Assembly: GCF_004010195.1 (NCBI RefSeq)
Contig: NC_057755.1
Coordinates: 5,687,474-5,751,473, forward strand
Reading direction: 5' to 3'
From: Chiloscyllium plagiosum
Taxonomy: Eukaryota
Length of the DNA: 64,000 nucleotides
Position numbers and translations under genes: made by a program. Below, piece by piece: positions 8,363 to 62,155 of the stretch; positions within the stretch are counted from its first letter, which is position 1, and the number at the start of each line of letters is the position of its first letter. The notes under the pieces are model-generated. The model saw only the letters and a program-made list of their open reading frames with translations, searched no databases and had not been told where the DNA came from.

Positions 8363-9243
8363 TTACATGGATTTATTCACCAATTGAATTATTTTTATAA
8401 CTGGATATTTCACTGCATACTTTAACTGATCTCTGAAATCTTTCTGTGTCACCACATAAATAACTGCATTGGTGCAGCAACTGAGGTTCCGCAGCATATA
8501 TGCAACTTGTTCAAAGAGATCAAAATCATCCACGTATTTACCGATACCATATATGTATATGATATACACCAACCAGAGCAATATGAAGCTGACAGACATA
8601 GCAAACAGTAAAGTCACAGATTTCTTTCTGCACTTTATCTCTGGGTCATTCTCTGTTTTTTTATGACCTCTCAGTCCCTTACGTGCCTTATTGGCCTCGA
8701 AGATGTGTCTGACTGTCAGAATATTAAGAAAGAGAATCGAAATGAATGGAAGAAGAATTCTTAAAAATGATTCAATATATCTATAACTCACCCACAAAGG
8801 GTCATTGAAGTAACTTTTTCTGGTGTAACAGTACAATGGAACATTGTTGATAATCCTTCCAGGTCGAAGTCGAAAATATTTCGGAATGTTCTTTACAGAA
8901 AAGAAAATGCAGATTGTTGCCAGAACGCTCTTTGCAGTTTTCACTGTGCAATACTGAGATTTCATCTGATGAAAACAAATGGCGACAAATCGATCAAAAG
9001 AAAAAGCAACAGTGAACCAGACAGAACAATCAATTGTGACGTCAATCAGGACCCAGATAACATTACAAACAGGAGTGATGTCCAGGAAACACCGTGGATA
9101 ATAATAGTATCTAAATCGATGAAGTATGACATCAAAAATAATAAACAGTAGATCAGATACAGCCATTGCGACCAGATAGCTAGTGGTGCATGTTGAAAGA
9201 CCACACTTGTCCCCAGATAAGAATACAATCACCACTAGACTAA
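8363..9243 (-). CDS. GPR139/GPR142-like class A GPCR, exon 2 (end of TM1 to C-terminus)
   Basis: Open frame containing MAVSDLL (TM2), CSVWFTVAFSFDRFVAIC (TM3, DRF), LPFISILFLN (TM5), FILLWL (TM6) and CCTNAVIY (TM7). Acceptor ctttctttctcttacag precedes 9243 (phase 1). Confidence 0.93.
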
Positions 9244-10244
9244 CTGTAAGAGAAAGAAAGATAAAAAAGACATAAAGTTACTGATGAAATAATCTCTGTG
9301 CCTGATGGTTTTAGCACAACGATGTTTGCATGTCATATCGCCCAAAACATTACAGTTATCACTGTCAAATGAATTATGTTCACTTTTAAAAACATGTAGG
9401 AAATTACATGAGGATCAAATGACTCCTAGAAACTTGATTATGTACTCAATATTTTTGGAGTAATCAGAAATTAGTTTCTTTTGCTTTACAGATTACTCTG
9501 ACTGCTTGAGTTGCTCATGAAACAACAACCATCCAAATAAATCCATCCGGGATCAATGAAAAAGAGGAAACACCAAACACGGACATCGAGTACAAAATTC
9601 CTGCACACGGTGGTGGAGTCTCCACAGCTCAGATTTCTTCCAGAATTGCACGTCCACATTGTGTAATTATGGTGCAGGGCAGTGAATCCTTCCAGTGTCC
9701 AGGAATGGATGCACTCTCCAAAGCGAATGAAGAAATGATAAGGCATTGAACCGGTACTCCTCCCTGCTTCCCCACTTTTACAGGATCGAACATAATGACA
9801 ATCTGAAATATGGAAATTTTCAGCAGGGAATCCAACCATCATGACCCAGTTTGGATACACACTCCAAGCAGAAGAATGCTAATATTGTATTTGGTACGGA
9901 CTCCCCCCACAATGTAAAATATTGCACAGCACAGTCTCCACTCAAATAAAATCTGAATTGATGCAGCTTTGATCATTGCAAATTTCCGGTTTGGAAATCA
10001 TGTGAAGAAGCAAAGTTTCCTGCCTGATTTCCAGGCTCCTGCAGTTCTCCTTGTGAACAGAAATCCTCCTCCCAGATTTGGAGCAGAAGCTCCGGCTGGG
10101 AATCTCCAGAGTGTAAGCAGCATTCTCCATGGAGGTCACCAGAATTGTGCCCTAGCTTGTTCTGAGAGACCAATACATTGCACCATTGCTTGGTATCAGA
10201 GACTGCTTTTGTGGATTCAGTCCAATGCTGAACATTCAGGGGGA

Positions 10245-10410
10245 TGATAGGAGAAAATGAGGACTGCAAATGCAGGAGATCAGAGTCGAGAGTGTGGTGG
10301 TAGAAAAACACAGCATTCCTGATGAAGGGCTTATGCCCAAAATATCGATTCTCCTTTTCCTCAGATGCTGCCTGACCTGCTGTGCTTTTCCAGCATCACA
10401 CTGTCGACTA
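10245..10410 (+). mobile_element. Penelope-like terminal fragment with inverted arms and CpG-decayed hammerhead motif
   Basis: Arms agtcgagagtgtggtggtagaaaaacacagca / tgctgtgcttttccagcatcacactgtcgact surround CTGATGA-A-GGGC-TTAT-GCCC-AAAATATC. Confidence 0.8.
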
Positions 10411-10429
10411 AATGTCTACTTTGGCTGAC

Positions 10430-10690
10430 AATGAAATTTGAGGTCAATAAAAATGTGGACTTAACAGTCTAATTGTAACCATTAAACTGTTGTTAACTGT
10501 TATGAAAAAAGCCACTTCCCTTGACAAAAGTCCCTTAGAGAAGGTAATCTTTCGTCCTAACATGGCCTGACCTACAAGTGACTCCAAACGCATGACAATC
10601 TGGTGACTCCTACACGCCCTCTGAGCAATTTCAGTATGGGGGGGTGGCCGAGGCAGTGACACCCACATCCATTGAATGAACAAAAGAAAA
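10430..10690 (+). mobile_element. Old SINE fragment with an L2/CR1-type tail, in the GPCR intron
   Basis: Ends ...gacacccacatccattgaatgaacaaaagaaaa, matching the inverted LINE tail at ~34185-34215. Confidence 0.55.
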
Positions 10691-11134
10691 TGGAGATCCC
10701 CCATACATACCTAACTTCCTAGAATAGACAACTTTTTACAGCATCCCATTGAAATGAATATCCCAACTCTAAGTTGCTTGTCACAAATATGCATCGCCCA
10801 AAACTGACCCACGTTTGAAGATAAGAGATCCTTCACTTGATTCATAACAGTTTTCTGCAGTAGGGAACGCCAACACATAGACCTGTTCCCAGCACAGACA
10901 ACTGAGGCAAAAAGGGCTGTCTTTTGACTTTGATACTCACGAGAGTTCGGAAATTCCTTGCGATAATGGACGCCATGAATTCAGTAAGACCTCAACACCA
11001 AGCATCCAAACTTTCACTTTGAATGTTTCTCCTGTTCTGTGTGTACAGGAAAATCCCGTCGACACTAACCCCCTTTGGGTTCACAGGTGTCTTCTTGCAG
11101 AGACGGTAACAGTGATCATTTCTAAATGTAAGCT

Positions 11135-12070
11135 TTAGTCAGGCCAATATTGATTGCCCAGCTCTAGTCGCCATTTTGATGCTACTGGAAGTCTGCCTTT
11201 TTGAATATCTGTAACGCCTGCGGTGCAGTAAATTCCACGGTGTTTTCAGAGGGGAGTTGCAGAAATATTACCCAGCAACGGTGATGATACAAACATATAC
11301 TGTATTTTGAAGTCGGAATGAAATTTATTTTGAGAGGGAACTTGCATTTGGCAGTGTTTCTGTTCACCTGAACCCCTTGATCATGGGCCATGAGTTTATG
11401 AGGTGTTGTTGAAAGAGAGTTGGGGTGTTCCTAGTTTGCATCTTGTAGGTGGTATCCATTTCTGGTCATGCATTGGTGAAGAGTGTGAGTACTGAATGTG
11501 GTGATTGTTTGTTTGTACTGCACAATGAGGAGCTCCGTGAATGTTGCACTCAGCTAGATTCATGGAGAGCATTCCATCCCATCTCTGAGCTCTGCTTTCT
11601 GGGTGGAGGGCATGGATTGGAGAGGGAGGCAGGCAGCGTATTGCTACAGGAATCAGGTTGTCTGACATGCAGCAGTTTTATGGCCAGACTGGTTCATTCT
11701 CTTGTCAATGGTTGGCTCAGGTCATGCAGTCAGTCATGGTAATGTCGTAGTAAGCCAATGGGAGATTGGTCGGGATGGTCGTTACCTGGTGCTTTCAAAT
11801 GTGAATGTTACTTTCAAATTGTCAGTCCAAGTTTGATGTAACCTCACTGTATATGGACACAGATGTCTTCATTATCTAAGGAGTTGTAAATGGTGCTGAA
11901 CATTGCAGCACCATGCGCTAACCTCTTCACCTCAGAAATAATGACAGAGGGAAGGTTAGAGATGAGGCATTTTTTTTATTCTGGTGTCTGGGACAACATT
12001 CTGAAGAATTCCTGCAGATATGTAAGATGACTGCGGTGATTGACCTCCATCAGTCATAACTGTCTTCCCC
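11135..12070 (-). mobile_element. Decayed L2/CR1-like LINE 3' portion, in the GPCR intron
   Basis: Similar to 34185-34730 and to the reverse complement of 45500-46550. Confidence 0.6.
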
Positions 12071-14514
12071 TGTATTCAGGATTGAACCAAAACAAGCTGG
12101 CTTCTCATTGTGTTCAATTATTTGAGGGTTCGCTATTGTGGATATGTGTTCATAACTTACCTGTTTAAGAGCTAAATATTTCTTTTCCGTCATTAAAATA
12201 TACCTATAAAAGTAGGCAAATATAATTGACGAGCAGATAATACATGTTTCTGTAAATGTAAGACAATTCTGAGTTTGTTACACTTTAGAGTGAACATGTG
12301 GCTGTGCTGGAATGTCAGATGTGATGGAACAAAACTGTACAATGTGTCATTGAGATTGGACACCCGTCAGAGTCAGCCTGTTTGTCATTATCATACAAAA
12401 AAAACAGAAAAGGTCATAGTTCTGGAAATGGCTTTGTGAACTCTGTTAGTGACATAGTGTGTTCAAATGATGAGTAAAACCGAATCAGGTCAAGGTTTCT
12501 TTCACAGTTTCTATACTTAATATACAACGTTCTGTATTCTGTACTGTTAATTCTCTGCAATGTTCTTCAACGCAATTTATTAACCATAGTCATAATATTG
12601 CAGGTACTAGTCAATTACTTGATGAATCAATGTACTAATATATATATTTTCTTTATGTTTCTATATTGCTTTAAAACTTATTGTAGCACATCCCTCATCA
12701 AATCCTCTTCCTCACGAGGAGAACAAGGATCATAAAGCAGCAATCACTGTAAAATTTACTGTGGATAGATGATGGATCATAGATTCAAAAATTATTGATC
12801 TAATCAGATTCAGAGTGGAATAGTGGCAATCAGTCTAGCTCGATATCCACAGTCATTAACATCGAGCTAATGAATGAGAGCAGTCATGTCCTACAGTTTG
12901 TTCTAACTTTGCTGAAAGATTAATCACTCCCAAAAATATTATTAAAGGAAACATTATTTGCCTATGGGACAATTAATTGAATTCATGCCGTTGTTCTGTT
13001 ATTTTCATTTTTGCAAGAAGTCACACCTATTATCCCCAATCGAACACTTTACTTTGTAAACTTAGTACGAAATATATTCAACCAAAGATTTTCCCATTTG
13101 TAATCCATCGTATTACCAAACTCCATCAGTGAAGAGATCAGAAATGAGAACTGTCATATTGAAGAAGCATCGCTTTGTTTCAGTCAAGTTATGTTCCTAG
13201 TTACAACTGCATTCAAATCTTCCCTTTCATTCAGTTCCCCACGAGTTAAATTCTATCCTCAGACATACTCCTTCTTGTTCAATATCACGGTGGTGAATTG
13301 TTTCCTTCTTGTTGGTAACTCATACTCAGTGTTATTGTATTTTGCTAGAAGCTCCCAATAACACTTGGAGGCTCGGCTCGTTGTTCTCCTTTGGCTAAGA
13401 ACCCAGACCCAGTTAGAATTTTACAGAAAGCTGCTCACTGCATCACATTGCCATGGGAATCGGAAGTTGCATTCAGGTTATTGACCCACATTCAGTACAG
13501 CTCTCCACTGAAAGATATTTTCAATAATATTTACAATTGAGGTCATGGATATTCCCCCATTCTGCGACACACTTACAGCAATGCTGCGTTTACAGAAACT
13601 CGAGAAAAGCAACAACACGGGGTCAGAAGTTCATATCTGAGCAGTTACCCACACTCAATGACGCATTCTCCCAGCACTACGAGGCAACAGTAATAACAGG
13701 TTATTCCCTATTCAGTACAATTCCACGATCAGTAACAGCTTCATTCAGAGTTACTCCAGGAGATCGAGATTAACAGTACGAAGCATTCTAATCAATCACT
13801 GGATAATGTAGAGTGTGTATGAACTAGAAATAAAGATTTTCTTTTCTCAGTTGAAGAATTACACTACAGAGTTAGTTTGGAAATGTTAACTACGTGCATT
13901 TCTCTCAATATTTGGAACTCATATTAACCTGATCATCTGCCCTCACAAAATCATTCCTCCACACATCCACTGACTAAGAAAAGCACATAGGATCATCAAG
14001 GTCATTTGCCTTTCGCTTATCACTCCATAATGATCGGCCCAACACACCCATTGCCCACCTGTTGTATGTGGGCTTCCATTTGGAGCGAGCTGCCTGAGCA
14101 AGACCCACCAACACAATCCCTTCGCATCAAGGAATGGGAAACACCAGGTATCACTAAGAGCTGGGTTGTTATAAAACCCATCTGAACAATAGCAGGTTTT
14201 GAATTCCCACAGAGAGAGTGTGGTCTTGGTAACCACTTTCTTGACCAGCCAGGGCCCGTGCTCAGACAAACCCCATCAGTGTGGCGCCAGAGCAAACCCA
14301 TTCTGCACAGTACAGAGAAACAGGCAACACTGCACATTACTGAGAAGCCTCGTCATCAAACAACTATTTTCTTTAAACTCAGTAAATGAGGGCACTATAA
14401 ACTGACATCGAGATTTACCTTACTGAATGGAAAGAAAATAATTATCAGTCATAGAGCGGAAATTAGTGATTTAATGCAGAGATTTATGGAAATTTAAATT
14501 GTAACAAGACTCAC

Positions 14515-14581
14515 CAGGAACTCCAACACTAGCAAGGACAGTGTAATATAATTTCGCGACCATTTGCCTTGGCAGATGCAT
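14515..14581 (-). CDS. GPR139/GPR142-like GPCR, exon 1 (MHLPRQMVAKLYYTVLASVGVP + G)
   Basis: 67 coding nt followed by donor GTGAGT. Joins exon 2 in frame (G|TT = Val) to give 948 nt, i.e. 315 aa plus stop. Same length and phase as the exon at 31790-31856. Confidence 0.88.
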
Positions 14582-15224
14582 TGTGTTGTTTGTGAAACAA
14601 TCTCCCCGTTCCTGCTGCTGACAATCTGTAAGAATTGGAGAATTCTCTCGGAGTTGGAGCTGACCCAGTTCCAGAGACTTTATTTCATATTGTGTGATAT
14701 CTCCACTGGGAATCTGTGATTTTTTAAAATATAATTTTGAACAAAGAGATTACGACAACAGGTTTATTTTAACGATATGATATCATGGAGATTTAGTCTG
14801 TATTTGAACTCCCCAAAGACTGGATTAATCTGATCCTATTTAGGTGACAAATATTACTTGCAACTCGTCTTCAAAAAGCAATGATTGAAATAATATTTCA
14901 CTCACCACCAGTCCCATTAATACCTTTTGATATTCTTTTCATTGATGACGTTCATTTTGCTGAGGCTATACAGTTATTCCATATCTCATGTTGCAGAGCT
15001 CCTTGAGAGCTTTTCTACTGTACACTGTTAACCCTCTTCTTTCCTTGTTTATTCAGTTTTACAACACAGTTGAGAAATTCTGTCTGTGAGTGAGCATGGT
15101 AATACAGAACCTGAAGCTGATACTGACCACAAGAACAGTTGGAACATACACTGCGAAATATTTCTTTAAAACAGATCGGAACAAACTAGGAAGTGATCCG
15201 AACGTTCTTTTCAGAATTACAGAG

Positions 15225-18479: not shown

Positions 18480-20838
18480 AATCCCAAAATCTGCTCAAGA
18501 GAGATCGATCTGAGACGGGTCCAGCTGAGAACAGAAGTGAGTCAAACAGTCAGGGTAGGCAGGGACAAGGTAGGACTAATAAATTAAACTGTATTAATTT
18601 CAATACAAGGGGCCGAACAGGGAAGGCAGATGAACTTAGGGCATGGTTAGGAACATGGAACTGGGATATAATAGCAATTACGGAAAGATGGCTCAGGGAT
18701 GGGCAGGACTGGCAGCTTAATGCTCCAGGATACAAATACTACTGGAAGGGCTGAAAGGGAGGCAAGAGAGGAGGGGAAGTGGCATTTTTGATAAGGGATA
18801 GCATTACAGCTGAGCTGAGGGAGGATATTCCCGGAAATACATCCAGAGAAGTTATTTGGGTGGAACTGAGAAATAAGAAAGGGATGATCACCTTATTGGG
18901 ATTGTATTATAGACCCCCCCAATAGTCAGAAGGAAGTTGAGAAACAAACTTGTAAGGAGATCTCAGCTATCTGTAAGAATAATAGGGTAGTTATAGTTAG
19001 GGATTTTAACTTTGCAAACATCGACTGGGACTGCCATAGTGTTAAATGTTTAGCTGGAGAGGAATTTCTTAAATATGTACAAGACAATTTTCTGATTCAG
19101 TATGTGGATGTGCCTGTTAGAGAAGGTGCAGAACTTGACCGACTCTTGGAAAATAAGGCAGGGCAGGTGACTGAGGTGTCAGTGGGGGAGCACTTTGGGG
19201 CCAGCGACCATAATTCTATTCGTTTTAAAATTGTGATGGAAAAGGATAGACCAGATCTAAAAGTTGAAGTTCTAAATTGGAGAAAGGCCAATTTTGACGG
19301 TATTAGGCAAGAACTTTCGAGAGCTGATTGGAGGCAGACGTTCGCAGGCAAATGGACGGCTGGAAAGGGGGAATTCTTCAGAAATGAGATAACAGGAATC
19401 CAGAGAATGTATCTTCCTGTCACGGTGAAAGGAATGGTTGGTAGTTATAGGGAATGCTGGATGACTAAAGAAGTTGAGGGTTTGATTGAGAAAAAGAAGA
19501 CAGCATATGTCAGATGTAGACAGGATAGATCGAGTGAATCCTTAGAAAAATATAAAGAAAGTAGGAGTATACTTAAGAGAGAAATCGGGAGGGCAAAACG
19601 GGAACACGAGATAGCTTTGGCAAATACAATTAAGAAGATTCCAAGGGTTTTTACAAATATATTTAGGACAAAATGGTAACTAGGGAAAAAATAGGCCCCC
19701 TCAAAGATCAGCAAGGCGGCCTTTGCGTGAAGTCACAGAAAATGGGGGAGATACTAAATGAATATTTGGCACCAGTATTTACTGTGGAAAAGGGTATGGA
19801 AGATATAGACTGGAGGGAAATAGAGGGTGACATCTTGCAAAATGTCCAGATTACAGAGGGGGAAGTGCTGGATGTCTTGAAATGGATAAAAGTGGATAAA
19901 TCCCCAGGGCCTGATCAGTTAATCAGTTTGCAGATGACACTAAAATTTTTGGTGTAGTAGACATCGAAGAGGGTTACCTCAGATTTCAACAGGATCTGGA
20001 GCAGATTGGCCAATGGGCTGAGATGTGGCAGATGAAGTTTAATTCAGATAAATGCGAGATGCTGCATTTATGGAAAGCAAATCATAGCAGGACTTATATA
20101 CTTAATGGTAAGGCCCTAGACAGTGTTGCTGAACAAAGAGACCTTGGAGTGTAGGATCAGAGCTCCTTGAAAGTGGAGTTGCGGGGAGATAGGATAATGA
20201 AGAAGGCGTTTGGTATAACTTCTTCTATTGCTTAGAGTGTTGGGTACAGGAGTTGGGAAGTCATGTTGCGGCCGTACCGGACATTGGTTAGACCACTGTT
20301 GGAATAGTGCATGCAATTCTGGTCTCCTTCCTATCGGAAAGACGTTGTGAAACTTGAAAGGGTTCAGAAAAGATTTTCAAGTATTTTGCCAGGGTTGGAG
20401 CATTTGAGCTACAGGGAGAGGGTGAATAAGCTGGGGTTATTTTCCCTGGAGCGTCGGAGGCTGAAGAGTGACCTTATAGAGTTCATAAAATTATGTGGAG
20501 CATTGATAGGATAAATAAACTAAGTCTTTTCCTTGTGGTTGGGTAGTCCAGATCTAGAGGGCATAGGTTGAGTGTGAGAGGGGAAAGATATAAAAGAGAC
20601 ATAAGCGGCAACTTTTTCACATGTATGGAATGAGCTGCCAGAAGATGTGTTTGTGGCTGGTACAATTGCAACATTTAAGAGGCATTTGGATGTGTATATG
20701 AATGGGTACGTTTGGAGGGATATGGGCTGGGTGTTGGCAGGTGGGACTAGATTGGGTTGGGATATCTGGTCGGAATGGACAGGTTTGACCGAAGGGTCTG
20801 TTCCCATGCTGTACATCTTTATGACTCTATGACTCTAT
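18480..20838 (+). mobile_element. CR1 LINE ORF2 (endonuclease, linker, ~620-bp RT deletion at ~19918, 3' end)
   Basis: GKADELRAW, WDIIAITE, YRPP, DFNF.NIDW and SDHNSIRF. DKSPGPDQ is joined directly to FADD. Tail is atgactctatgactctat. Confidence 0.93.
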
Positions 20839-20839
20839 A

Positions 20840-21165
20840 ACACACTCCGGGCTATCTGTTATTCTGTATATAAACCACACTGAAATCTTCGATTAGATTC
20901 CAGGCTGTAACTCATTTCCAGGCTATCTGTTATTCTGTATATAAACCACCGTGAACCCGTGAATTACATTCCAGGTTGTAACTCACTCCGGGCTATCTGT
21001 TATTCTACACATAATCGATACGAATCCTCTTGATAATATTCCAATCTGTAACTGACTTCCATTTTAAGGGACTCTGTACATTAGCCACCGCAATCGTTTG
21101 ATTATATTCCAGTCTGTATCACACTCCTGGTATCTGTTAGTCTGTATATTAACCATCCAATCCAA
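20840..21165. repeat. Short ~70-bp tandem array (~4.5 copies), unrelated to the adjacent large array
   Basis: ggctatctgttattct at 20850, 20921 and 20991, with further decayed copies. Confidence 0.85.
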
Positions 21166-21173: not shown

Positions 21174-21302
21174 AAAATTGCCCATAGTGTTCAGGGATGT
21201 GTCGGTGAGATGCATTAGTCAGGGGTCAATGTGAGGAAATGAGTCTGGGTGGGTTATTCTTCTGAAGATCAGTGTACATTTCTCTGACTTTATGATTCTA
21301 TG
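21174..21302 (+). mobile_element. SINE 3' fragment (HE1-like)
   Basis: aaattgcccatagtg...tctgggtggg...gattctatg resembles the reverse complement of the SINE at 50337-50643. Confidence 0.6.
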
Positions 21303-43232: not shown

Positions 43233-43571
43233 GTCACCAATGTGCCGTGTTTCTTTGACTGGAATGGTGCTGACTCTGAAAATTGCCCTGAACACCTTCT
43301 AGGAACTCTGTTGAACAACTGTCCCAGTCGAAATCACATGATTAAAATTCATAATATTACTCGACAATTCTTATATCTTTCTATACTGTCCTTGTAAAGT
43401 GATAGTGGTTGAGAGATAACAACGAGCAATATATCTGCACACTTTGTGTTCCCAGAAAACTAATCCAAACCTTCAATCCTCTGGATATCTCTTTCTTGGA
43501 CTGCAATATTTTCTTTAATAATCAAGAATTTCCTCCACCCTTCTTTTCTGAAAATCTCGTGTCCATAAATA

Positions 43572-43760
43572 GTTAAAAATTACACAACACCAGGTTACAG
43601 TCCAACAGGTTTGTTTCGAAGCACTAAGGTTGACAACCACCTGATTAAGGAGCAGCGCTCTGAAAGCTAGTGCTTCCAAATAAAACTGTTGGACTATAAC
43701 CTGGTGTTACATGATTTTTAACTTAACCACCCAGGTCCAACACTGGTACCTCCAAGTCAT
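43572..43760 (+). mobile_element. Penelope-like terminal fragment (third family) forming a ~55-bp-arm hairpin around a hammerhead motif
   Basis: Arms at 43572-43626 and 43668-43722. Core cac-CTGATTA-A-GGAGC-AGC-GCTCT-GAAA-GC-TA-gtg. Confidence 0.75.
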
Positions 43761-43929
43761 GACAAATAGTGATGTTTGTCCAGGTTTCAGTTATACCTAT
43801 AATATTATATTTCAATGTGCATACAACTCATCTGTTTTATTTACCTCTATCCACACATTCAGGTATACCCTCAGATATATTACACTTAGATTTAAATATA
43901 TATATACAGCATGAACTATTTGGATATTT

Positions 43930-48830: not shown

Positions 48831-50329
48831 ACCTTTAATAGACAGGGATTGTGTGTGAGAGAAAGAAATATCAGAATGCATGAGAAAGTGGAAAAAATCG
48901 AACCCTGGTCTGTGTGTGAGGGAGGAATATCAGACAAGGTTCACGTGTGAGAGAGAGCAATATCTTACAAGGTTCATGCGTGTTGGGGAGGAATATCAGA
49001 CAAGGTTCATGTATGAGACTGGAATGTCAGACAATGTGTGAGACAGACATAACAGTCAGGGTTTATGCATAAGAGAGATGAATATTAGACAGGGTTTATG
49101 TGTGAGAGTGAGGAATATCAAGCAGGGATAATGTGTGAGAGAAGAAATATTAGACAGAATTAATGTTTGAGAGAGACAGGAGTATCAGTCAGTGTTTATG
49201 TGTGAGAAACACGAATGTTAGTCCGGGTTTATGTGTGAGAGAAGGAATATCAGTCATGGTTTATCTGAGAGAATTAGGAATATTACACAGCGTTCATTTG
49301 TGAGAGACAGGAATATCAGAAAGTATTTATGTGTGCGAGTGAAGAATATTAGTCAGGATTTATGAGAAGAGAGATAGGAATACCAGACTGGTTTTACGTG
49401 TGAGAAGGAGGAATACAGTCATGGTTTTTCTGTGAGAGAGGGTAATATCAGTCAGGTTTATGTGTGAGAGAGAGAGAAATACCAGTCAGTTGTTTTGCGT
49501 GAGAGAGAGGAATATCAGTTAGATTTATGTGTGCGAGACAGGAATATTGCACAGGATTTATGCCTGAGAAATTGGATTGAGACAGGGTTAATGTTACAGA
49601 GTTAGGAATATCAGTCAGGGTTTATGTGTGAGAGACAGGAATATCGGACAGGGTTTATGTGTGAGTGAAGAAATATTAGACAGGAGTAATGTTTGAGAGA
49701 GACAGAATTATCGGTCAGTGTTTATGTGTGAGAAACAGGAATATCAGTCCGGGTTTATGTGTGAGAGAAATGATATCCGTCAGGCTTTATGCGTGAAAGT
49801 TAGGAATATTAGGTAGGAGACATGTTACAGAGGTAGGAATATCAGTCAGTGTTCATGTGTGAGAGACAGGGATATCCGGCAGGGTTTATGTGTGTGAGAG
49901 AGGAATAGCAGTCAGGGATTAAGTTTGAGAGAAAAATAACGGACAGGGTTTCTGTGAGCGGGTCAGTAATGGCAGTATGATTTTATGTGTGAGAATTAGG
50001 AATATTAGACAGTGTTCATGTGTGAGAGACAGGAATATCCAAGAGTGTTTACGTGTGTGAGAGAAGGATACTGGTCAGGGTTTATTTGTGAGGGACAGGA
50101 ATACCAGACTGGTTTTATGTAAGAGAGAGGAATATCAGTCAAGGTTTATGTACGCGAGACAGGAACATCAGCCGATCATTATGTGTGAGAGACAGGAATA
50201 TCAGTTATAGTTTATGTGTGAAAGGGAGGAATATCAGTCAGGGTTTATGTGTGAGAGCGAGGAATATGAGACAGGGTTAATATGTGAGAGAGAAGAATTT
50301 CATCAGGGTTTATGTGTGTGAGACAGGAA

Positions 50330-50643
50330 TGATTAGATCATATTACTTACAGTGTGGAAACAGGCCCGTTGGCCCGACGAGTCCACACCGACCCTACAAA
50401 GAGCAATCCACCCAGACCCATTCCCCCACCCTCACCCCACACTACGAGCAAATTAGCATGGCCAATTCACCTAACCAGCACATTTTTTTTGGACTGTGGG
50501 AGGATTTCGGAGAACCCAGAGGAAACACACACAGACACGGGGAGAATGTGCAAACTCCACGCAGACAGTTGCCTGAGGCAGGAATTGAACACGGATCTCT
50601 TGCGCTCTGAGGCAGCAGTGCTAACCACTGTGCCACCATGCCG
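50330..50643 (-). mobile_element. Full-length tRNA-derived SINE (HE1-like)
   Basis: Minus-strand head cggcatggTGGCACAGTGGttagcac...GTTCAATTCc (Pol III A and B boxes) and CR1-type tail gggcctgtttccacactgtaagt. Confidence 0.88.
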
Positions 50644-52186
50644 TATAATCTGGGGAATTACAGCTAGAACCCACTCAGCAGTGAGGGTCACTCAAACAGG
50701 AATGTAGGTTATTATCTGTAGACCCTGTAAAGATCGAGGGCTCTCTCACTCCCCCACACAAATAGGATCCAATTAAAGCTGGGGCTGAGGAGTCAGTAAT
50801 TGTGACAGTAACAGATTGAGAGAAGCTGGAAATAGTAAGACTGACAGTATCCTAGACTAATTCACAGAAGCTGGATAACTCAATCCATCTCACTACTGAT
50901 TATACTTCCCGAATTAAATCTGCCATGTATTAGTACCCTATAGTAGGGAATCCCGCCTCTATATTTAATGGATTGAAAGCACAACAGGATATAGTCTCAG
51001 CCCTTGCTATTGTGTATGTGTTATGGTCCATACCTGTGGACCTAGAATGACAGAATAAGCTGGTGTTTACTATCTGAGGTAAACAGACACAATCCATGTG
51101 CGAGAGACAGCAATATCAATGAGGGTCCATATTTGTGAAAGAGGAATATTTATCAGGACTTGAGTGTGAGAGAGGAATATCGTCAGATTTTATGTCTGAG
51201 AGACAGGAATATCAGGCAGCATTAATGTGTGAGAGAGAGGAATGACAGTCAGGGTTTGTATGTGACAGGGTGGAATATCCAGCAGGCTTTATGTCTGAGG
51301 GAGATGAATATCTGTCAGGGTACACGTGCGAGAGACATGAGTAATAGACAGTGTTCCTGTGTGTGAGTGAGGAATATCTGTTGAGTTATTATGTGAGACA
51401 CAGGAGTATCTGACACGGTTTATTTGTTAGAGACAGGAATAAGAGTCGGGGTTTATGTTTCAGAGATGAATATCGGCCAGGATTTGTGTGTGAGAGACAA
51501 GAATATCAGTCAGTATTTATGTGTGAGAGGCAGAAATATCAGTCCGAGTTTATGGGTGAGAGAAGGAATATCACACAGGGTTTATGCGGGAGAGAGAGGA
51601 ATCGCAGTCAGATATTTCATGTGAGAGTTAGGAATATTAGACATAGGTCATGTGCGAGATACACGAATATCAGAGAGAGCTAATTGATGTGAGAAAAGAA
51701 TATTAGTCAGGGTTTGTGTGCGAGGGACTGGAACTCTAGACAGGGTTTGTATGAGAGAGACAGGAATATCAGTCAGGGTTTATGTTTCAGAGAGACGAAT
51801 ATCAGTCAGATTTTGTGTGAGAGAAAGGAATAACAGACAGGGTTTATGTGTGAGAGAGAGAAATATCAGTCAGGGTTTATGTGTGAGTCAGAGGAAATTC
51901 AGACAGTGTTTATATATGAGAGACAGGTTTATTAGTCAGGGTTTGCGTGTGAGAGACGGGAACATCAGTCAGGTTCTATAGGTGAGAGAGAGTAATGTCC
52001 GTCAGGGTGTATATGTGAGAGAGAGGAATACGAGACAGGGTTTTTGTCTATTAAAAAGGCGTAACAGTGAGGGATTAAGAGTGAGGGGGAGGAATATCAG
52101 TCAGGGTTTATGTTTCAGAGAGAGGAACATTAGTCAGATTTTGTGTGAGAGAAAGGAATAACAGACAGGGTTTATGTGTGAGAGAG

Positions 52187-52463
52187 NNNNNNNNNNNNNN
52201 NNNNNNNNNNNNNNNNNNNNNNNNNNNNNNNNNNNNNNNNNNNNNNNNNNNNNNNNNNNNNNNNNNNNNNNNNNNNNNNNNNNNNNNNNNNNNNNNNNNN
52301 NNNNNNNNNNNNNNNNNNNNNNNNNNNNNNNNNNNNNNNNNNNNNNNNNNNNNNNNNNNNNNNNNNNNNNNNNNNNNNNNNNNNNNNNNNNNNNNNNNNN
52401 NNNNNNNNNNNNNNNNNNNNNNNNNNNNNNNNNNNNNNNNNNNNNNNNNNNNNNNNNNNNNNN
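52187..52463. other. Assembly gap (277 N)
   Basis: Run of n. Confidence 1.
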
Positions 52464-52837
52464 GGCCTTTTCTCGTTGGAATGGCGAAGGATGAGGGGTG
52501 ACTTGATAGAGGTTTATAAGATGATCAGAGGAATAGGTAGAGTAGACAGTCAGAAACTTTTTCCCCGGGCACAACCGAGTGTTACAAGGGGACATAAATT
52601 TACGGTGAAGGGTGGAAGGTATAGGGGAGATGTCAGGGGTGGGTTCTTTACCCAGAGAGTGGTGGGGGCATGGAATGCGCTGCCCGTGGGAGTGGTAGAG
52701 TCAGAATCATTGGCGACCTTTAAGCGGCATTTGGATAGGTACATGGATGGGTACTTAATCTAGGTTAGAGGTTCGGCACAACATCGTGGGCCGAAGGGCC
52801 TGTTCTGTGCTGTATTGTTCTATGTTCTATGTTCTAT
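52464..52837 (+). mobile_element. Young CR1 3' end inserted in the 33-bp array
   Basis: Open ORF2 C-terminus RRMRGDLIEVYK..FFTQRVVGAWNALP..FKRHLD. Tail is (tgttcta)n. Confidence 0.93.
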
Positions 52838-55462
52838 AAGATAGGGTTTATCTACGAGAGACAGGAATATCAGTCAGGGTTTACGTGTCAGTGAGAAGAA
52901 TATCAGTCTGGGCTTATGTGAGAGAGACAGGAATATCAGACACGGTTTATGTGTGACAGACAGGAATATCACACAGGGCTTCTGTGTGAAAGACAGGAAT
53001 ATCAATCAGGGTTTATGTGAGATAAGAATATTAGTCAGGGTTTATGTGTGAGAGATTGGAATACAAGACAGGGTTTATCTATGAGGGACAGGAATATCAG
53101 TCTGGGCTTATGTGAGAGAGACAGGAATATCAGACACAGTTTATGTGTGACAGAGAGGAATATCATACAAGGTTTATGTGTGAGAGACAGGAATACAAGT
53201 CAGGGTTTATGCTTGGTTAACAGGAATATCAGTCAAGTTTTATGTGTGACAGATAGGAATGTTAGTCAGAGTTTATGTGTGAGAGATCAAATACAGATAA
53301 GAGTATGTGTGTGAGAGCGGAATGTCAGACAGGTTTATTTGTGAGAGGAACTTCAGTCAGGGTTTATGTGTGAGAAACAGGAATATTAGTTAGGTTTTAT
53401 GTTTCCGATAGAGGAAATCAATCAGAATTTCTGTGTGAGATATAGGAATTTCAGGTAGGGTTTATGTGTGTGAGAGAGAGGCATATCAGGCAGTGTTTAT
53501 GTGTGAGAGACAGGAATGTTAGTCAGGGTTTATGTATGAGAGATCGAATGCAGTTAATGGTTTGTGTGTGGGAGAGGAATATCAGTCAGGATTTAGTATG
53601 AGAGTAAGGAATATTAGACAGAGTTCATGTGTGAGGGAAAGGAATATCAGACAGGGTTTATGTATGAGATAGAGGAATAGTAGTCAGGATTTACGTGCGA
53701 GACAGGATTATTCGAAAGTGTTCATGTGTGGGAGAGAGGAACATTACACAAGGTTCATGTATGACAGAGCGAAATATCAGTCAGGGATTATGTTTGAGAG
53801 AGAGGAATATCAGCCAGGGCATATTTGTGAGAGAAGTAATATCAATCAGGCTTTATGTGTGAGAGAGAGGTATATCAGACAAAGGTCATGTGTAAGAGAA
53901 CGGAATATCTGTCAAAGTTTATGTGTGAGGGAGAGGAATATCAGTCAGGGTTTATGTGTGAGAGAAATATCAGATGGGTGTATGTGTGAGAGAGGAATAT
54001 CAGTCAGGTTTTATGTGCGAGAGAGAGCAATATCAGACTGGAGTTTTGTGAGAGGAAAATCTCAGTTCGGGTTTTTGTGTGAGAGGAATATTAGACAGAC
54101 TTCATGGATGAGAGAGAGGAATATCAGTTAGGGTTTATGTCTGAAAGAGAGGAATATCAGAGAGTTCATGTGTGAGAGAGAGGAATATCAGACTATGTTC
54201 ATTTGTGTGTGAGAGAGGAATATCAGTCCGCATTTATGTGTGATGGACAGAAAAATCAGAGAGGAGTGATGTGTGAGAGACAGAAATATCAGACAGGGTT
54301 TATATGTGAGAGAGCAGAATATCAGAAATGCGCCATGTATGAGAGACAGGAATATCAATCGGGGTTTATGTGTGAAAGAGAGGAATATCAGACAGAATTT
54401 ATATGAAGAATTATATTAAAAAGTGAACAAACATTGAAGTTTGACTCAATCCAACAAACCACAAAGACATTTCTTAATTGAATAAGAGAATTATTTGCAC
54501 ATATATATTTATAATCTATAATAACGGCATTTTGTAATTGGGTGTGCAGTGCAGTGTTCTTGATTGTTGAATACCTTTGGAATCTCTTGCATTTTTAACT
54601 TGCAATGTTTGCCCAAATGATATGATTTATGACAACTTAATTAATTTACATTCTCAAGAAATGAATTTAACATTTTACAAACCCAGAAATGGATTGCAGA
54701 GGATAGGTTTTTAATTGATTCGCAACGATTTTCCAACGAAATAATGTAAGGGCGGACTTCTATCGAATCAGGGCACTGTATCCAGCGTTGATTCACAAGT
54801 CACTGAAATCATGTTTCCTCGTGCAGTGCAGTCGCCTGAACAATCCTGAGGGAAGAAAGGACTGACAGATGGACTGAGTATCAGAATAGGGAGAGGAGGT
54901 TGCGATGAATGTGAAGAAATGCTTTCTGCACAATTGTTATAATGGAGATGGAGATGGATGATGTACAGACAAAGCTGGCGATGGGAAGGAATGATCTGAG
55001 TGCTGGACGTGTTATTCATTGGTTGTATTGGATGATGGCTGCCTTGTATCAGTTCAAACATAGGATTGTAAGAAGTGCTCAAGAACATCCGTTCGAAATA
55101 AACCATTGCAGAGTCAGGGGACATCGTCACTGCAAATGCACTTAAATGTTTATTATCAATTAATTGCTGAAGTTTTTCAGAAATTGTGACCCTTCTTTTC
55201 CATCTATTAATGACACATTTATTTGAAGCACGTCTGAAAAGGTGCAAAATGAACTAATGCAAGAGTGAACATTTCCAATGTTTATCGTCCTGACCAGTAC
55301 GAGATTTCCCCAATATATTTTCAGACCAGTAATGCTTATGCGCAATGCCACCACAACTTGTCCGTTCACTTATCAGATGGTCAAATGTGAACCTGGTATT
55401 TACTGATTGGAAACACTGTGACATAGCTCAGCGCACTTGCAAGTTTACAAGTAATTCATTCA

Positions 55463-55760
55463 TTATGTAAGTTTTGAAACCAGAGATGTCAACGCGTTCT
55501 TCATTGTCTCTCTGAACCTAGACCGAGTTGCTGCATAAATAAATGGGTTTGAGCAACAACATACATTCAGCAACATTAATCCAAAATCTTGAAATGCCAT
55601 TTCAGACTCTGCGTAAAATGTTCCTTTAAAGGTGTGACGAAAGAAATGTATGATAAACATCAACCACAGTAGTATAAATCTACGGGATAGTGAAAAGTAA
55701 AATGACAGACTTCCTCCTGCTTTCCATCTCTGGTTCGCTGTGCTTCTCTCCATTGCTGCG
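55463..55760 (-). pseudogene. GPR139/GPR142-like GPCR fragment (ICL3-TM6-TM7-C-terminus), frameshifted
   Basis: GEKHSEPEMESRRKSVILLFTI in one frame, shifting near 55685 to FILLWLMF...CCCSNPFIYAATRSRFRE. No recognisable TM1-5 adjacent. Confidence 0.85.
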
Positions 55761-57874
55761 AACTGCTGTCCTGCTGATGATTACTTTTCCTATTGCTGAT
55801 GGAATCTTATGTCTCATGAAAAAGTATTAGCCATGAGAAAAGGGATCGTTCAAATTCTCATTGAATGTTCCTGTATGTGCAAATGCCTAAATGCATCATC
55901 CTGTATTTTTGGTTCAATACTGCAAAAGATGAAACATTCATAATAGCAAATGGGTCTTTCAATGACAATTACCCTGCTGTAAATTAAGAAGTAAGGGACG
56001 TGCTATTGTTTATTACGTCGTCAGTTGTTCCTGCATTGTAATATGGTCAACAGATCAAGACTCTTGTTCCACTTTATACACTGTCCTTATCCTGAAATAA
56101 TCACCAACCATTCAGCATAATATTGCCTTTTGACGTCCGCATCATTTTCAAATTCGGACCTTTCCCAAAACTCCTCCACAAGATATTGCTGCAGATAAAG
56201 GTCCTGTAACTCCAGTTGTACTTATATGTATTCAGACAAAGAATGGCAGGTTTTATGAAATAGAGACAGAAATTGTTGGAGATACTCTGCAGGTCTGTCA
56301 GCATGTGCGGGGTACTCACTCGAGTTTAGAAGAATAGTGCCGACTATTCACTCGATCCATGCTTCATCAATTTATATACTTCTATCAGCGCTCTCAATAG
56401 CCTCTACTAATCTGGTAAACAGTCCAGTTTTGTTCAATCTCTCCTTAAAGCTCAGACACATTAATCCAGACAATCATATTTTTCACTCTGCACAAGGCCA
56501 GCTTTGTTCACCAGAACTGTACACAATATACAAAATGCGATTCAATTAAAGTTTTATACAGCTGCAACACGACTTGGCAACTTTAATATTCAATACTCCG
56601 ATTTGTGGAGCAAGCATAAGGACATTCTAATTATTACAGCAAGGAAACTAGCCTGCTTTTGAAATGAAGGAGACGTATCTGCAGATAGTCTGACAGTGGG
56701 CCTTAATATAAAAGAGAAATGTGGTTAATACCTGTGAAACTTGACGCCCTTTTGAAATCATTCAATAAATGTTTCAGAGAGAAAGGAATCTCAAGACCAG
56801 TTTCCAGTCGTGAGAATATCATTGTAAATTGAAGGTGTTTTCTGTGAAAGATCTAACGCGTGATATAACGATACTAGCGAGTCCAGGTATCAATGGAGAA
56901 AGAGCACGAGTTATCTAACAACTCCCTCGAGCTGTTCAGGGAGAGCTGGGCACCGCAGGTAGTGGAGTGCTTTATTTCTCCATCTAACTCTAATTTGATT
57001 TAATCCCTACCCTTCCCTTTGGTTTTTTTTTATCATACAGCCATGGCCTTTAATGAAGCATTAGCCACCCTCGTGTTTCCATTGTTCCTGGCGGTAGAAA
57101 TTGAATAAAGATTTATACACTTGTTGTGTTTAACTATGTCTCACACCTGCACATGCACGACATGAGTGCCAGGGAAGATACAAACACTACCGCAGTAAGG
57201 CATTAGTGTCGGGATGAAAAAAGAAAGAGAAAAAAAGGGAAGAAAAACAAAAAAAGAAGAGCAGAAGATTTAGAGTCGCCTCAGTTCAGGGGACAGACTC
57301 TGAACTGGCTGGCGCTACAGAAAGTGTGTTCCTGATACTGTTTGTTTCCCCTCTTTTTTGGAGGAGGGTGCTTCTTTATCTTTCCCATTGTTTAGGAAGA
57401 CCTTTTGTTCGTTTTCTTTGTTGTTTTTTCTGTTTTTTTTTCTTGAAGGAAAAGAAATAACGATACTGGTTCGATGGAATCCACGTGTAGACCTGAAGTA
57501 ACCAGGTGCAGCATTTATGGAAACAGTTATGTTTTCTCATTTGGATCTGTGACTCCAGCCTTTGCGTTGATGATGGTTAAGGATGAATTTGATTGTCCAA
57601 TAAAGTTAATTACAGCAAAACAGTTCCAATTACATTAAACTTTTAAGTGGTTGAATATTTTACAATTATTTCTATTTGATTGTGCGCATTTTGGCCATTT
57701 ACCTGAACAAGTAGCAAACGTTAGCTACAACTGAAGCATTGCACTTTGGTTAGGAGAGTTAGCGCAGGCTTCAGGGCAACGTTGCCAAACAAAGCGAGAT
57801 TAGGATATAGATTCACCGTTACATAAGGTTGGATTCACAGATTGACAGGTAGTGAAAATGGCATTTAGTACCCT

Positions 57875-57998: not shown

Positions 57999-58004
57999 AG
58001 TATC

Positions 58005-58586: not shown

Positions 58587-58679
58587 AACTCTTTTGAAAA
58601 AGACATGAATTAATGTGGTAATTTTCCGAAATTATTGAAATTTCGCAGTTAGATTTCTATATGAAACCAGTCAGAACAA

Positions 58680-59555
58680 CCATCACATTTGTTCAGAAGT
58701 TGCTGAATTAGCCCATGGATGCATTTGTTGCAAAGCTCGGGTCAGGTTACGGCTGCTTGTGAAACACACACCCTCGGTGCAACTTGAAGATTTCGCTCTT
58801 GGCCTCATGTTTTTCTACTATTCATTTTCACCATCTACTTCTTGATTCCCAGTGCATTGAAATGAAGAGTCGAGACTGTTCATTTATATGGATCTGTGAA
58901 AATCAGCAACCTGCATGAAAAATACACTATAGGTCAGTGAAAGCCATGAAAAAATCTACTATTTATTTTAATCAACTGCAAAAAGAAACCATACAAAAAG
59001 AAATATGCAAAAGAATAGAATAGAAATGTTGACTAAAATGTGAGCTATTTCACATTGAACCACCTTCAAAACCTCCAGTGAGAAAACAAACATTATTAAA
59101 AATGTAAATAGATGGAGAATCACAAAAAGACAGCTGCACTCCAGACAACTGTTCACAACAGTGAACATGCATCTACCGGAATAAATGTTCCAAACGTCTT
59201 CCTCAGAATGTTTATGATATCCTTTCTAACACTGCACAGCAATACACAAAAGGCAGTAAATCATTGCCAGAAAAAAAATGAGCCTCAGGCAGTGCCTCAT
59301 GAAAATCTGAAGAGGTAGAATGAAATTGTAAAGACAAATCATCTCATATGATCCAACAACTGACTGCTTGTTATACAGTTGTGATCAAGCCGTAACATTA
59401 TTAACTGCAATGTAACATGTACAGATCTTCGATTATTATTTTCACTTACCAAGTAGGCCAACCACAGCAAGGATCATGTAGTCCACATTTTTTAAAGATT
59501 GTACATTTGAAAAGTCATTTCTACGTTAATATATCTCGCTTTGTACCGTCATTAA
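58680..59555 (-). pseudogene. Possible highly decayed GPR139-like relic; exon-1-like part 59450-59555 is the best supported
   Basis: NVDYMILAVVGLL followed by G|GTAAGT mimics the family exon 1, with an in-frame stop upstream. Downstream similarity is weak (CLECSCLF; LCNKCIHGLIQ). Confidence 0.4.
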
Positions 59556-60139
59556 GCCCTTCATATTTTATTCTGTGGTGATAAAACCACAGGACAATTT
59601 ATTTATACCTTGTCAAATTTCCTTGGCTATATTGTAGTAACAACAGTTTCTGGCAACTGGTGAGCCTCAGGCTGTTTACGCTCACAAAATTTGAAATATT
59701 ACCTCGCTTTTGTTTTGCAGTTGAGGTAGGTGGTGTCAACGTCATGTTTTCCAATGAAAGCAAAAGTAAATAATTTAGGACACTGTGTGCATTCCATTTA
59801 TCTGAAATGACACCTGACACAGAGACACGACTGCAAAACTCTGACAAAGTGAAAAAATGCATTGAAATTACAGAAGAACTGTGTTGTCTACTCCAGCACC
59901 AACGACGTTAATACATTTCTGTTTGATTCAGCTATGCCCTTCATTGACATTCAATTGATGGTTTGTGATAGTGTGAGTGTTCTCCTTCAAAAAAATTATT
60001 TCATTTTCGTACTAATTCGGAGACAAATAAATATGACAAATGGGACATGCTGTTAATGATTGGAAGAACGTTCACAACCATCAGCGAAAACCACACTACT
60101 GAAGTTATAAAGGAAGCGACTTGAAAACTGAAGCAGGTT

Positions 60140-61182
60140 TGTGCCATGTTCTGTACCCTGCAGAACGACAGCAATGAGCTGTCAGGGCTTGTACACTGTA
60201 GAACGATGGCAATGAGCGGCCACGTCTTGTACACTGTAGAACGATGACAATGAGCTGTCAGGAAGTGTACCCTGCAGAATGAAGGCAAAGCGCTATCAGG
60301 GTTTGTATACTGCAGGACAATGGGAATGATCTGCAAGGGCGAGTGCACGGCATAACGATAGCAGTGAGCTGCCATGGTTCATTGCATACTGCAGAACGTT
60401 GCCACTGACCTGGCATGGTTGTACACTCTAAACGATGGTAATGAGCTGCCATGGTTTGTACACTGTAAACGGTGGCAATGACCAGCCAGGGTTTGTACAC
60501 TGTAAACGATTGCAATGAGCTGCCATGGCTTGTACACTGCAAACGATGGCAATGACCTGCCAGGGTTTGTACACTGTAAGCGATAGCAATGACTTGCCAT
60601 GGTTTGTACACTGTAAACGATGGGAATGAGTCGCCATGGCTTTTGCACTGTAGAACGATGGGAATGAGCTGCCAGGTCTTAGACACTGTAGAACAATGGT
60701 AATGATCTAACAGGATTTGTACCCTGCAGAACGAGAGCAAAGGGCTATAAGCGTTTGTACATTGAAGGACGATTGGAGTGAGCTGCCAGAGCTAGTACAT
60801 TGCAAAACTATGACAATGAGCTGCCAGACTTTATTACATGCTACAGAAAGATGGCAAAGACATGCCATGGTTTGTACACTGTGGGACGATGGTAATGAGC
60901 TGCTTGGGTTTGTACCCGGCTGAAGGATGGGAATGACCTGCCAGGGTTTGAACACTATAGAACGATGGTAATGAGCTGCCAGGGCCTGTACATTGTGCAA
61001 AGATGACAATGAGCTGCCAGGGTTTGAAGACAATAGAACGATAGTACCATGCAGAACGATAGTAATGAGTTTGCCTAAGGTTTGTACACTGTAGAACGAT
61101 GAGAATGAGCTGCCAGGGTTTATACCCTGTAGAACGATTGAAAAGAGCTGCCAGGACTTGTACACTGTAGAACGATGGCAAT
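60140..61182. repeat. Tandem array, 38-bp unit (GGGTTTGTACACTGTAGAACGATGGCAATGAGCTGCCA), with a 37-bp sub-array at ~60415-60625
   Basis: Direct periodicity. Confidence 0.93.
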
Positions 61183-61199
61183 TCAGGATGGTTAAAAAT

Positions 61200-62155
61200 A
61201 TTTTTAAGGATTGCAAACGTATTTCCTTTCATTGAGCTCACTGTTATTGTTATGTTCCTGAGACCACTTAATGTAACTCACATTAACTCTTATGTTACCT
61301 CCTCCCATCATTATGTTTATCTCATGTTCACACAGAAACTCTAACGGCGTGCGAAAGACAGTGAGACTGACTGATTGCCAGTTGCATTTCATGCAGAATA
61401 GCTCAACTGCACTTTTGCCGACTCTGTAATTTAATTCAATGATCTGTATTGACCTTTGCTTGTGCATTATCAGTTGTAGCTGGCTAGTTCTTGGAATTGA
61501 CTTGAATTTAATTTATTTCAACTCAGTAAAAAATTATGCAATTAGTTGAACCCCCTGCTGTATAGTACTTCATAAAAAGAAAGTTAAAGATGCCCAATTG
61601 AACATAAAGACACACTGGAAAAATGAAATTTCATAATAATAATATATTATTTTGTGACATTTAATGAAATGCACACAGAACTATTATATCCTGATGGATA
61701 TTCACAAAGTACAAGAAAAGTGTGATAATGTCTCCTATCCCATTGTGGTACGGGCTTTATTGAACCCTACAAATATATTCACCAGAATGCTGTACTCAGT
61801 AATTCAATGTCAGTTGTTGTATATTTCAGCACAATCACACATTGCACTAAAGAAGTTAAATCAATGTTGGAAATTCTGTGCGTAACAAAAAGCGTTTTAT
61901 TATCATCTAAGAGGAGGAACAAAAGTTCGGAGACAAAACAAGACATTTGATCAAGCACGTGACCGGCTGAAGTGAACACCACGTAACATTATCAGACATG
62001 GTTTCAACATTTAAACTTTTGAAATATTTAGGGCAAGGGCAGACCACAGACAGTAAGGATCATGTAGTACAATCTCTGGACGTTCTACACACGATAAGTC
62101 CTTCCTGAATTAATAATCTGCTCCTTCATTGTGCAAGTGATCATTTCGTTTTCAG
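61200..62155 (-). pseudogene. Possible highly decayed GPR139-like relic
   Basis: One frame with stops reads NVQRLYYMILTVCGLP (TM1), VSELLFLLLD (cf. VSDLLFIIFD), IDLT..VL..TTD (cf. LDIT..VL..TID). Later ELNYRVGKSAVELFCM (cf. EIKCRKKSVTLLFAM). Confidence 0.4.

Follow-up and report, generated by a model that had tools for sequence, protein, structure and literature searches.

The window examined here is a stretch of 64,000 nucleotides from the bamboo shark Chiloscyllium plagiosum (contig NC_057755.1, positions 5,687,474 to 5,751,473 of the forward strand). It holds part of a birth-and-death cluster of elasmobranch class A G-protein-coupled receptors (GPCRs) encoded in two exons, and, judging from sequence, we give about an even chance that this receptor family is a chemosensory repertoire. 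Across the family the inner signalling face is constant while the predicted ligand pocket varies widely, which makes a large set of chemical sensors likely, and not extra copies of GPR139. What goes by the automatic name 'GPR139' is a large family of class A receptors whose pocket has diversified. The window itself, with an intact gene (gene A), a full-length pseudogene (gene B), a fragment (fragment C) and two exon-1 relics, is an ordinary piece of this family. The added value lies in an amphibian sister group with a GPR139-like pocket, a natural reference for deorphanisation.

The family was compared with two groups of low-copy relatives, called here subtype I (represented by the coelacanth protein XP_005988539.1) and subtype II (amphibian, XP_069092602.1 of Pleurodeles waltl). 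Of the 359 rows of the alignment, a full-length filter left 273: 164 of 227 for the family, 83 of 102 for subtype I and 20 of 20 for subtype II. In the family, the entropy was 1.93 bits for the extracellular halves of the helices, 0.63 for the intracellular halves (p 4e-15) and 2.13 for 25 predicted pocket positions. The corresponding values were 0.90, 0.65 and 0.64 for subtype I, at a mean identity of 0.60 against 0.61 for the family, and 0.24, 0.38 and 0.03 for subtype II. When pairs with 60-70% overall identity were taken, pocket identity was 0.42 in the family (527 pairs), 0.79 in subtype I (591) and 0.95 in subtype II (15); intracellular identity in the same bracket was 0.82, 0.78 and 0.72, respectively. 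Gene A and its closest relative, the zebra shark protein P0001, share 0.54 of the pocket and 0.85 of the intracellular positions. The family sample is biased toward relatives of gene A; 45 distant family representatives gave the same pattern (2.36 vs 0.98 bits). The class A activation motifs are conserved (D2.50, DR3.50, P5.50, W6.48, N7.49, Y7.53), and acidic residues are frequent at 3.37 (D/E in 151 of 164 rows) and 5x43 (117 of 164). A variable predicted pocket together with a conserved G-protein face, as expected of a chemosensory repertoire, is thus what the alignment contains.

Applied to the low-copy relatives, the pocket mapping retrieves R/K at 6.51 and D at 7x35. Activation of GPR139 depends on residues F109, H187, W241 and N271; R244 was modelled as a polar contact, and its mutants were not expressed (PMC5430874). 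At these Trp/Phe-site positions gene A has D90, E180, W246, Y249 and Y271, so that four of the five residues are replaced and W6.48 is the only one of the four activation residues to be kept. F, H, W, R and N are retained in 18, 14, 162, 2 and 2 of the 164 family rows, and no row keeps more than three of the five. Subtype II has F, Q, W, K and N in 20/20, and subtype I has Y/F, Q and R in 83/83 but lacks W6.48. The number of distinct five-residue signatures was 134 in the 164 family rows, 10 in the 83 of subtype I and 1 in the 20 of subtype II. The suggestion of a preliminary description of this DNA, that the receptors are possibly amino-acid sensing through a GPR139-type pocket, is not supported, given these replacements.

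A protein search with exon 2 of gene A gave 600 matches among 1,316 scored candidates. The best 120 of the 600 were 54-73% identical to the query and belonged to 12 elasmobranch species (sharks, one skate and one ray); nearly all bore the label 'probable' or 'putative GPR139'. Sixty-four of these 120 were horn shark proteins; by hand count, 34 lay on one 74.5-Mb contig and 30 on 17 others. Within the same 120, gene A was closest to the zebra shark model (74% identity), the other 119 reaching 54-61%. These matches mark the DNA as elasmobranch, and the 74% identity with a zebra shark protein points to a carpet shark. A family profile built from 83 sequences matched 132 representatives at E 1e-30 and 590 at E 1e-10 among 1.84 billion. 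When 20 of the more distant family-like representatives were checked, 19 were elasmobranch by name and one carried no species. Other automatic labels of family members were sex peptide, capa, vasopressin V2, GPR15 and C5a receptor-like. The elasmobranch models named 'probable G-protein coupled receptor 139' in RefSeq and UniRef are this family, and the names are automatic similarity labels without a description.

Gene birth and death in a large clustered family is thus found here, as in chemosensory repertoires, and the earlier proposal of a lineage expansion with birth and death was supported by the paralogues across sharks, skates and rays, the pseudogenes in the window and a dN/dS of 0.31 between genes A and B. 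Lineage-specific GPCR expansions are already a known kind. In the literature searched, which excludes most subscription papers, no description of the elasmobranch expansion was found; the accessible parts of PMC11979771 and PMC12208981 contain no mention of GPR139 and of shark, respectively. The expansion of an uncharacterised GPR139-related paralogue therefore seems undescribed, its genes being catalogued only by automatic annotation.

The best full-length scores of the family profile outside elasmobranchs were 174.5 bits for a salamander, 164.0 for the coelacanth and 149.4 for a teleost protein. Lower scores were obtained for amphioxus (105-115 bits), an anchovy (97.4) and three unnamed outgroup proteins (96-98). 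Human GPR139 was the best of 83 solved sequences (55.9 bits, E 3e-14; the next scored 34.6), and it was also the best solved-structure match of the family member P0005. With gene A alone, phmmer did not list GPR139 at E 0.001. A search with the distant relatives gave 189 matches, of which the best 120 were used; rows were assigned to the subtypes by identity, and 12 of them were checked in the tree. Among the rows listed, subtype I is 48-66% identical to the coelacanth protein and occurs in sharks, ray-finned fishes, amphibians and reptiles, subtype II is 25-30% identical to it and is confined to amphibians, and both have mostly one row per species.

An IQ-TREE tree was built from 38 rows (family 19 of 164, subtype II 5 of 20, subtype I 7 of 83, anchovy 1, amphioxus 3, outgroup 3); it covers the relatives of GPR139 and GPR142 but not these two receptors proper, and P0200, P0261 and P0263 form long branches. 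The family came out as one group (95/87), sister to the amphibian subtype II (100/99), and sharks were found to carry a conserved subtype I gene as well (P0299, P0340), separate from the expanded family. The whitespotted bamboo shark GPR139 and GPR142 are listed in an orthogroup of their own (PMC13689627, supplement file 6, row 4265); the supplements of that paper, file 6 in part, contain only GPR139/GPR142 proper, and LOC122548289 was not found there. Because the bamboo shark has these separate orthologues, and because the profile scores 55.9 bits with GPR139 vs 174.5 with the amphibian sister, the family is not orthologous to GPR139 or GPR142, and the label 'GPR139' overstates the kinship. 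It is probably derived from a low-copy GPR139-related paralogue. The term 'GPR139/GPR142-like' used in the preliminary description consequently holds for the best solved-structure match and fails for orthology. Additional GPR139/142 subtypes, GPR210A and GPR210B, have been described in coelacanth and fishes (PMC6504862), with no occurrence of sharks in the accessible part of that paper. Subtype I is a candidate GPR210A/GPR210B member.

Like GPR139 (human, PDB 7vug/9m42) and GPR142, the family members are class A receptors with a short N-terminus and, in the alignment, a similar start of transmembrane helix 1 (TM1) and a similar TM3 motif. GPR139 and GPR142 are single-copy and conserved, whereas the shark family is multi-copy and variable in the pocket; in the alignment it also has a longer extracellular loop 2 (ECL2) and, in intracellular loop 3 (ICL3), a motif that GPR139 lacks. 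An ICL3/TM6 stretch of the type DPE-M-x-x-RR-x-S is shared with subtype II (frogs, newts and a caecilian). Subtype II differs in having about one gene per species among the rows listed, a nearly invariant and GPR139-like pocket, and only about 30% identity to gene A. Coelacanth subtype I probably belongs to the same wider family; it scores 164 bits with the family profile, and its best solved match is again GPR139. It differs in being conserved and low-copy, with shark orthologues that lie apart from the expanded set.

Two side observations concern these relatives. The amphibian orphan receptor P0228 and its relatives have F3.33, W6.48, K6.51 and N7x38 in 20/20, with S at 1.50 and N at 2.50, and subtype II may on this basis itself be a receptor for an aromatic amino acid or a peptide. 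The subtype I receptors P0340 (zebra shark) and P0407 (frog) are annotated as isoforms of 'transmembrane protein 183A', which suggests a conserved place beside or within TMEM183A that hides the receptor gene.

Three coding stretches (gene A, gene B and fragment C) were recovered in the window by TBLASTN and the family hidden Markov model (HMM), and a DNA/HMM profile search of the window gave no additional exon-2 remnant. Together with the flanks and relics, the features are as follows.

8363-9243, minus strand: gene A exon 2, from the rest of TM1 to the stop, intact, with an AG acceptor after a pyrimidine tract
9244-14514, minus strand: gene A phase-1 intron, 5,271 nt, GT..AG, from splice-site reading
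14515-14581, minus strand: gene A exon 1, 67 nt, from ATG to mid-TM1, with a GT donor, from the exon-1 matrix and alignment
14582-14880, minus strand: gene A upstream flank, homologous to the flanks of gene B and the relics, with a degenerate TATA-like element from 14689
31480-31789, plus strand: gene B upstream flank, TATA position degenerate (31698)
31790-31856, plus strand: gene B exon 1, 67 nt, with a GT donor
33241-34133, plus strand: gene B exon 2, pseudogene without internal frameshift, stops at 33381, 33939 and 33996
55463-55780, minus strand: fragment C, ICL3-TM6-TM7-C-terminus, one frameshift, the 5' two-thirds of exon 2 gone (HMM E 1e-19)
59444-59830, minus strand: relic 1, upstream flank with an intact TATAAATA (from 59607) and an exon-1 remnant
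59518-59450, minus strand: exon-1 remnant of relic 1, 69 nt, frameshifted, with a stop and a GTAAGT donor in register
61990-62420, minus strand: relic 2, upstream flank and an exon-1 remnant at about 62102-62036, no ATG, no donor, no exon 2 found

Gene A has an unbroken coding length of 948 nt (315 residues and the stop). Its protein matches Pfam 7tm_1 above the cut-off (E 5e-20), its AlphaFold model has seven helices (pLDDT 70.5), and the class A features D53, D106-R107, P188, W246, N281, Y285 and the TM3-ECL2 cysteines C82/C161 are present, N1.50 being S24. Hence, gene A is a class A (rhodopsin-like) GPCR. The joined protein aligns from residue 1 with P0001 at 74% identity. Gene A lies inside the family clade and has two coding exons with a phase-1 intron after codon 21-22; it is a member of the expanded elasmobranch 'probable GPR139' family. 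The open frame, the canonical splice sites and the class A motifs argue for function, as do a polyA-like signal 276 nt past the stop and the relative P0001 from another carpet shark family, which has four of the five departures of gene A from conserved columns. Foldseek and VIA searches with the model gave peptide GPCRs (TM about 0.7, Z about 21, rmsd 3.4, 264 residues aligned), GPR139 being absent from the top 50 rows of both; a comparison of this predicted structure lacks the power to resolve the subfamily.

Gene B has a phase-1 intron of 1,384 nt. Its in-frame stops fall at codons 70, 256 and 275, and there is no stop at the usual end of the family, the frame continuing to 34350-34352. The clear divergence of the two full copies noted earlier was confirmed, 145 of 315 aligned residues being identical (46%). 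Their exons 1 had been called identical; length and intron phase agree, but only 41 of 67 nt do. Since exon 1 ends at codon 21-22 in 48 of 67 counted family N-termini, the shared length and phase are the family norm. The upstream flanks of A and B align with a local score of 78 vs 41 for the best of 100 shuffles. The overall dN/dS of 0.31 shows long purifying selection. In the tree, gene A pairs with the zebra shark protein (100/100) within a set (99/96) of genes from horn shark, catshark and bamboo shark to which gene B does not belong; A and B are therefore not a recent tandem pair.

The relics were assessed with an exon-1 matrix of 12 residues, made from 61 distinct family peptides, against a background of 10 shuffled windows. 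The four highest sites of the window were gene A (26.2), relic 2 (19.2), gene B (17.4) and relic 1 (15.7); the best site per shuffled window scored 4.2-15.4 (n=10). A DNA profile of genes A and B matched the relics at E 0.0011 and 0.019, and a profile of the relics matched gene B at E 2e-7 without listing gene A. The two relics align with each other at a local score of 129 (best shuffle 53). Against the exon-1 region of gene A alone they scored 31 and 30, no better than the shuffle mean of 31. Exon-1-like sites at 47078, 45239 and 29846 (12.6-13.4) were rejected, as they lie within the shuffle range, have no GT donor in register and were missed by the DNA profile. Homology of fragment C starts at about nucleotide 578 of the 900 of exon 2, and relic 1 lies 3.7 kb upstream of it. 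From this order, strand and spacing, relic 1 and fragment C are probably one decayed gene, and the window probably holds about four family copies, one intact and about three decayed. The intact gene, pseudogene, fragment and two relics, in both orientations, given in the preliminary description thus stand, and they probably represent four copies instead of five.

Sequencing runs bear on gene A as well. In single-cell RNA run X7 (2% read), four exon-2 bins had a depth of 0.16-0.32 with no splice junction, and no reads of run X8 were placed on the gene. The summed contig depth over the exon-2 bins in DNA runs was 772-5,480, vs 13-17 for single contigs in run X1; this sum is not a copy number, and it fits many paralogues. 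Intron pieces of gene A in X1 have one mismatch to the window in 342 bases and one in 403.

If the family is chemosensory, its two-exon cassette would have been duplicated together with its promoter, frequent gene loss would accompany duplication, and the pocket would have diverged under selection for new ligands, each member binding a different outside chemical in its remodelled pocket. Such ligands may be odorants, pheromones, prey or water-borne cues, the expressing cells may lie in olfactory or other sensory epithelia, and the constant face may signal through one common G protein; GPR139 itself is Gq-coupled (PMC6367278). We propose, tentatively and at rather less than even chances, a more specific form. 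The family could be the fifth family of olfactory receptors, with an origin of its own and hundreds of genes, derived from the GPR139-related paralogue that amphibians keep in low copy number; each sensory cell would express one member from a shared TATA promoter. It would be the counterpart of the OR expansion of bony vertebrates, in sharks and rays, whose sense of smell is attributed almost entirely to a few dozen V2Rs. A sensory role would change the account of chemical detection in sharks and mean that vertebrate chemoreceptor repertoires arose independently once more.

The OR, TAAR/TARL, V1R/ORA, T2R and V2R families typically form clusters of compact genes with pseudogenes, expand in particular lineages and vary in the pocket. 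The shark family resembles them in its clusters, pseudogenes, compact genes, lineage expansion and variable predicted pocket. It differs in that all its homology points to the GPR139-related branch and its coding region has one phase-1 intron. None of these families was found by Pfam at E 0.01 for the three window proteins (gene A gave 7tm_1 only) or among the named matches of the protein searches. A relative paucity of GPCRs and olfactory receptors has been described in cartilaginous fishes (PMC8455134; PMC11979771).

Several points weigh against the chemosensory interpretation. V2R is treated as the main olfactory family in PMC11979771, and there no GPCR is among the 50 most specific genes of a catshark brain-and-olfactory library, a weak objection, V2Rs being absent from them too. 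The pocket positions were counted from motif anchors on the alignment with printed GPR139 alignments, not from a ligand-bound structure, and in the family their variability does not significantly exceed that of the remaining extracellular-half positions (p 0.057). Paralogue pairs of the family were set against orthologue pairs of the relatives, which favours the contrast, and pocket variability alone does not separate diversifying selection from relaxed constraint. In five alignment columns with at least 90% conservation gene A has a different residue, among them N1.50, where it has S; four of the departures recur in P0001, from another carpet shark family, and the fifth (I185 for P) does not. 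The TATA position of gene A is degenerate. An X1 contig over 8515-8972 of exon 2 differs at 15 of 458 bases, and two of its nine testable differences are nonsense (Y249, Y254); run X5 carries the letters of the window where X1 differs. This contig may be a null allele, a gene conversion or a very close pseudogene paralogue. Given the departures, the degenerate TATA and the nonsense changes in the closest X1 copy, gene A may be weakly constrained. The X1 substitutions were also seen to be tightly clustered in TM6 at 8549-8597, where a single X1 contig covers 8549-8564.

Among the alternatives is a repertoire for immune or mucosal surveillance, in which leukocyte or barrier-epithelium receptors would recognise varied microbial or parasite molecules, as the formyl peptide receptors and MRGPRs do in mammals. 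We regard it as unlikely, at roughly one chance in a handful; if true, it would provide a new family of surveillance receptors. The variable pocket, constant inner face, clusters and pseudogenes are also expected under host-pathogen turnover, but the ancestry lies among GPR139/neuropeptide-type and not chemoattractant receptors. The strings 'GPR139' and 'receptor 139' do not occur in four supplementary files, within the accessible part, of an immune single-cell atlas of cartilaginous and bony fishes (PMC11372145), a weak argument given the unclear gene naming there. A shade less probable is drift, by which the expansion would be largely a by-product of duplication in repeat-rich regions and the copies mostly redundant or ligand-independent, only folding and G-protein contact being selected and the pocket being under relaxed constraint. 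Just one of about four copies in the window is intact, satellite arrays and LINE/SINE fragments crowd the surrounding sequence, and the close gene A copy in X1 has stops. The A-B dN/dS of 0.31 is high for a GPCR, a value that includes post-pseudogene drift in gene B. Against drift, the gene A lineage is open in two carpet shark families (74% to P0001), and the intracellular face of the family is conserved as well as or better than that of the low-copy relatives at equal divergence. Intact members also persist in sharks, skates and rays that are more than 270 My apart (PMC11979771).

Two further alternatives assign the family narrower ligands. It is improbable that the family consists of multiplied aromatic amino-acid sensors of the GPR139/GPR142 type, tuned differently within a single ligand class. 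The GPR139 matches of the family profile (E 3e-14) and of P0005 would agree with this, as would W6.48 in 162/164 rows, and the ligands of the wider receptor group are aromatic amino acids or peptides with such a residue at the end (PMC8557429). The Trp/Phe-site residues are, however, mostly replaced in gene A and the family, whereas subtype II retains F, W and N, with K in place of R, in 20/20; gene A alone does not list GPR139 at E 0.001, and the true GPR139 and GPR142 are separate genes in the bamboo shark. Still more remote is a role in reproduction or internal peptide signalling, as sperm, oviduct or pheromone-peptide receptors that echo the protostome sex-peptide and FMRFamide receptors of the same supergroup. 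Neighbours are automatically named 'sex peptide receptor-like' and 'FMRFamide receptor-like', and the acidic residues at 3.37 and 5x43 could bind basic peptides or amines. Such names are similarity labels, however, and an endogenous ligand would be expected to keep the pocket unchanged, the pattern seen in subtypes I and II. A chemosensory repertoire thus remains the reading that we prefer.

The window is repeat-rich (GC 0.43), with satellites of 54, 71, 33 and 38 bp and LINE/SINE fragments. An array with a period of 26 bp was not found, and no satellite array lies within 6 kb upstream of gene A. A satellite of 71-bp units (21302-29716, 8.4 kb, about 120 copies, 73% matches) ends 2.1 kb upstream of gene B, and a short 70/71-bp array of related length lies at 20838-21155. 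A 38-bp satellite (60152-61177), which begins 0.6 kb before relic 1, stands between relics 2 and 1, at the expected place of the intron and exon 2 of relic 2. A stretch of 300 bp on the 3' side of fragment C (54419-54721) recurs with 72% identity on the 5' side of relic 2 (62595-62897); it may mark a tandem-duplication unit or be an old repeat. The 54-bp satellite at 10-3070 has a higher period of 162 bp, and its unit resembles two diverged 27-bp halves. The 33-bp satellite, strongly strand-skewed, forms three blocks in 48911-54402 and is split by a gap of 277 N and a LINE 3' fragment (about 52495-52760). Direct repeats of 165 bp (99% identity; 36412-36576 and 39126-39290) and 290 bp (72% identity; 43889-44174 and 44770-45064) were observed, along with a self-complementary, MITE-like stretch of 150 bp at 43571-43723.

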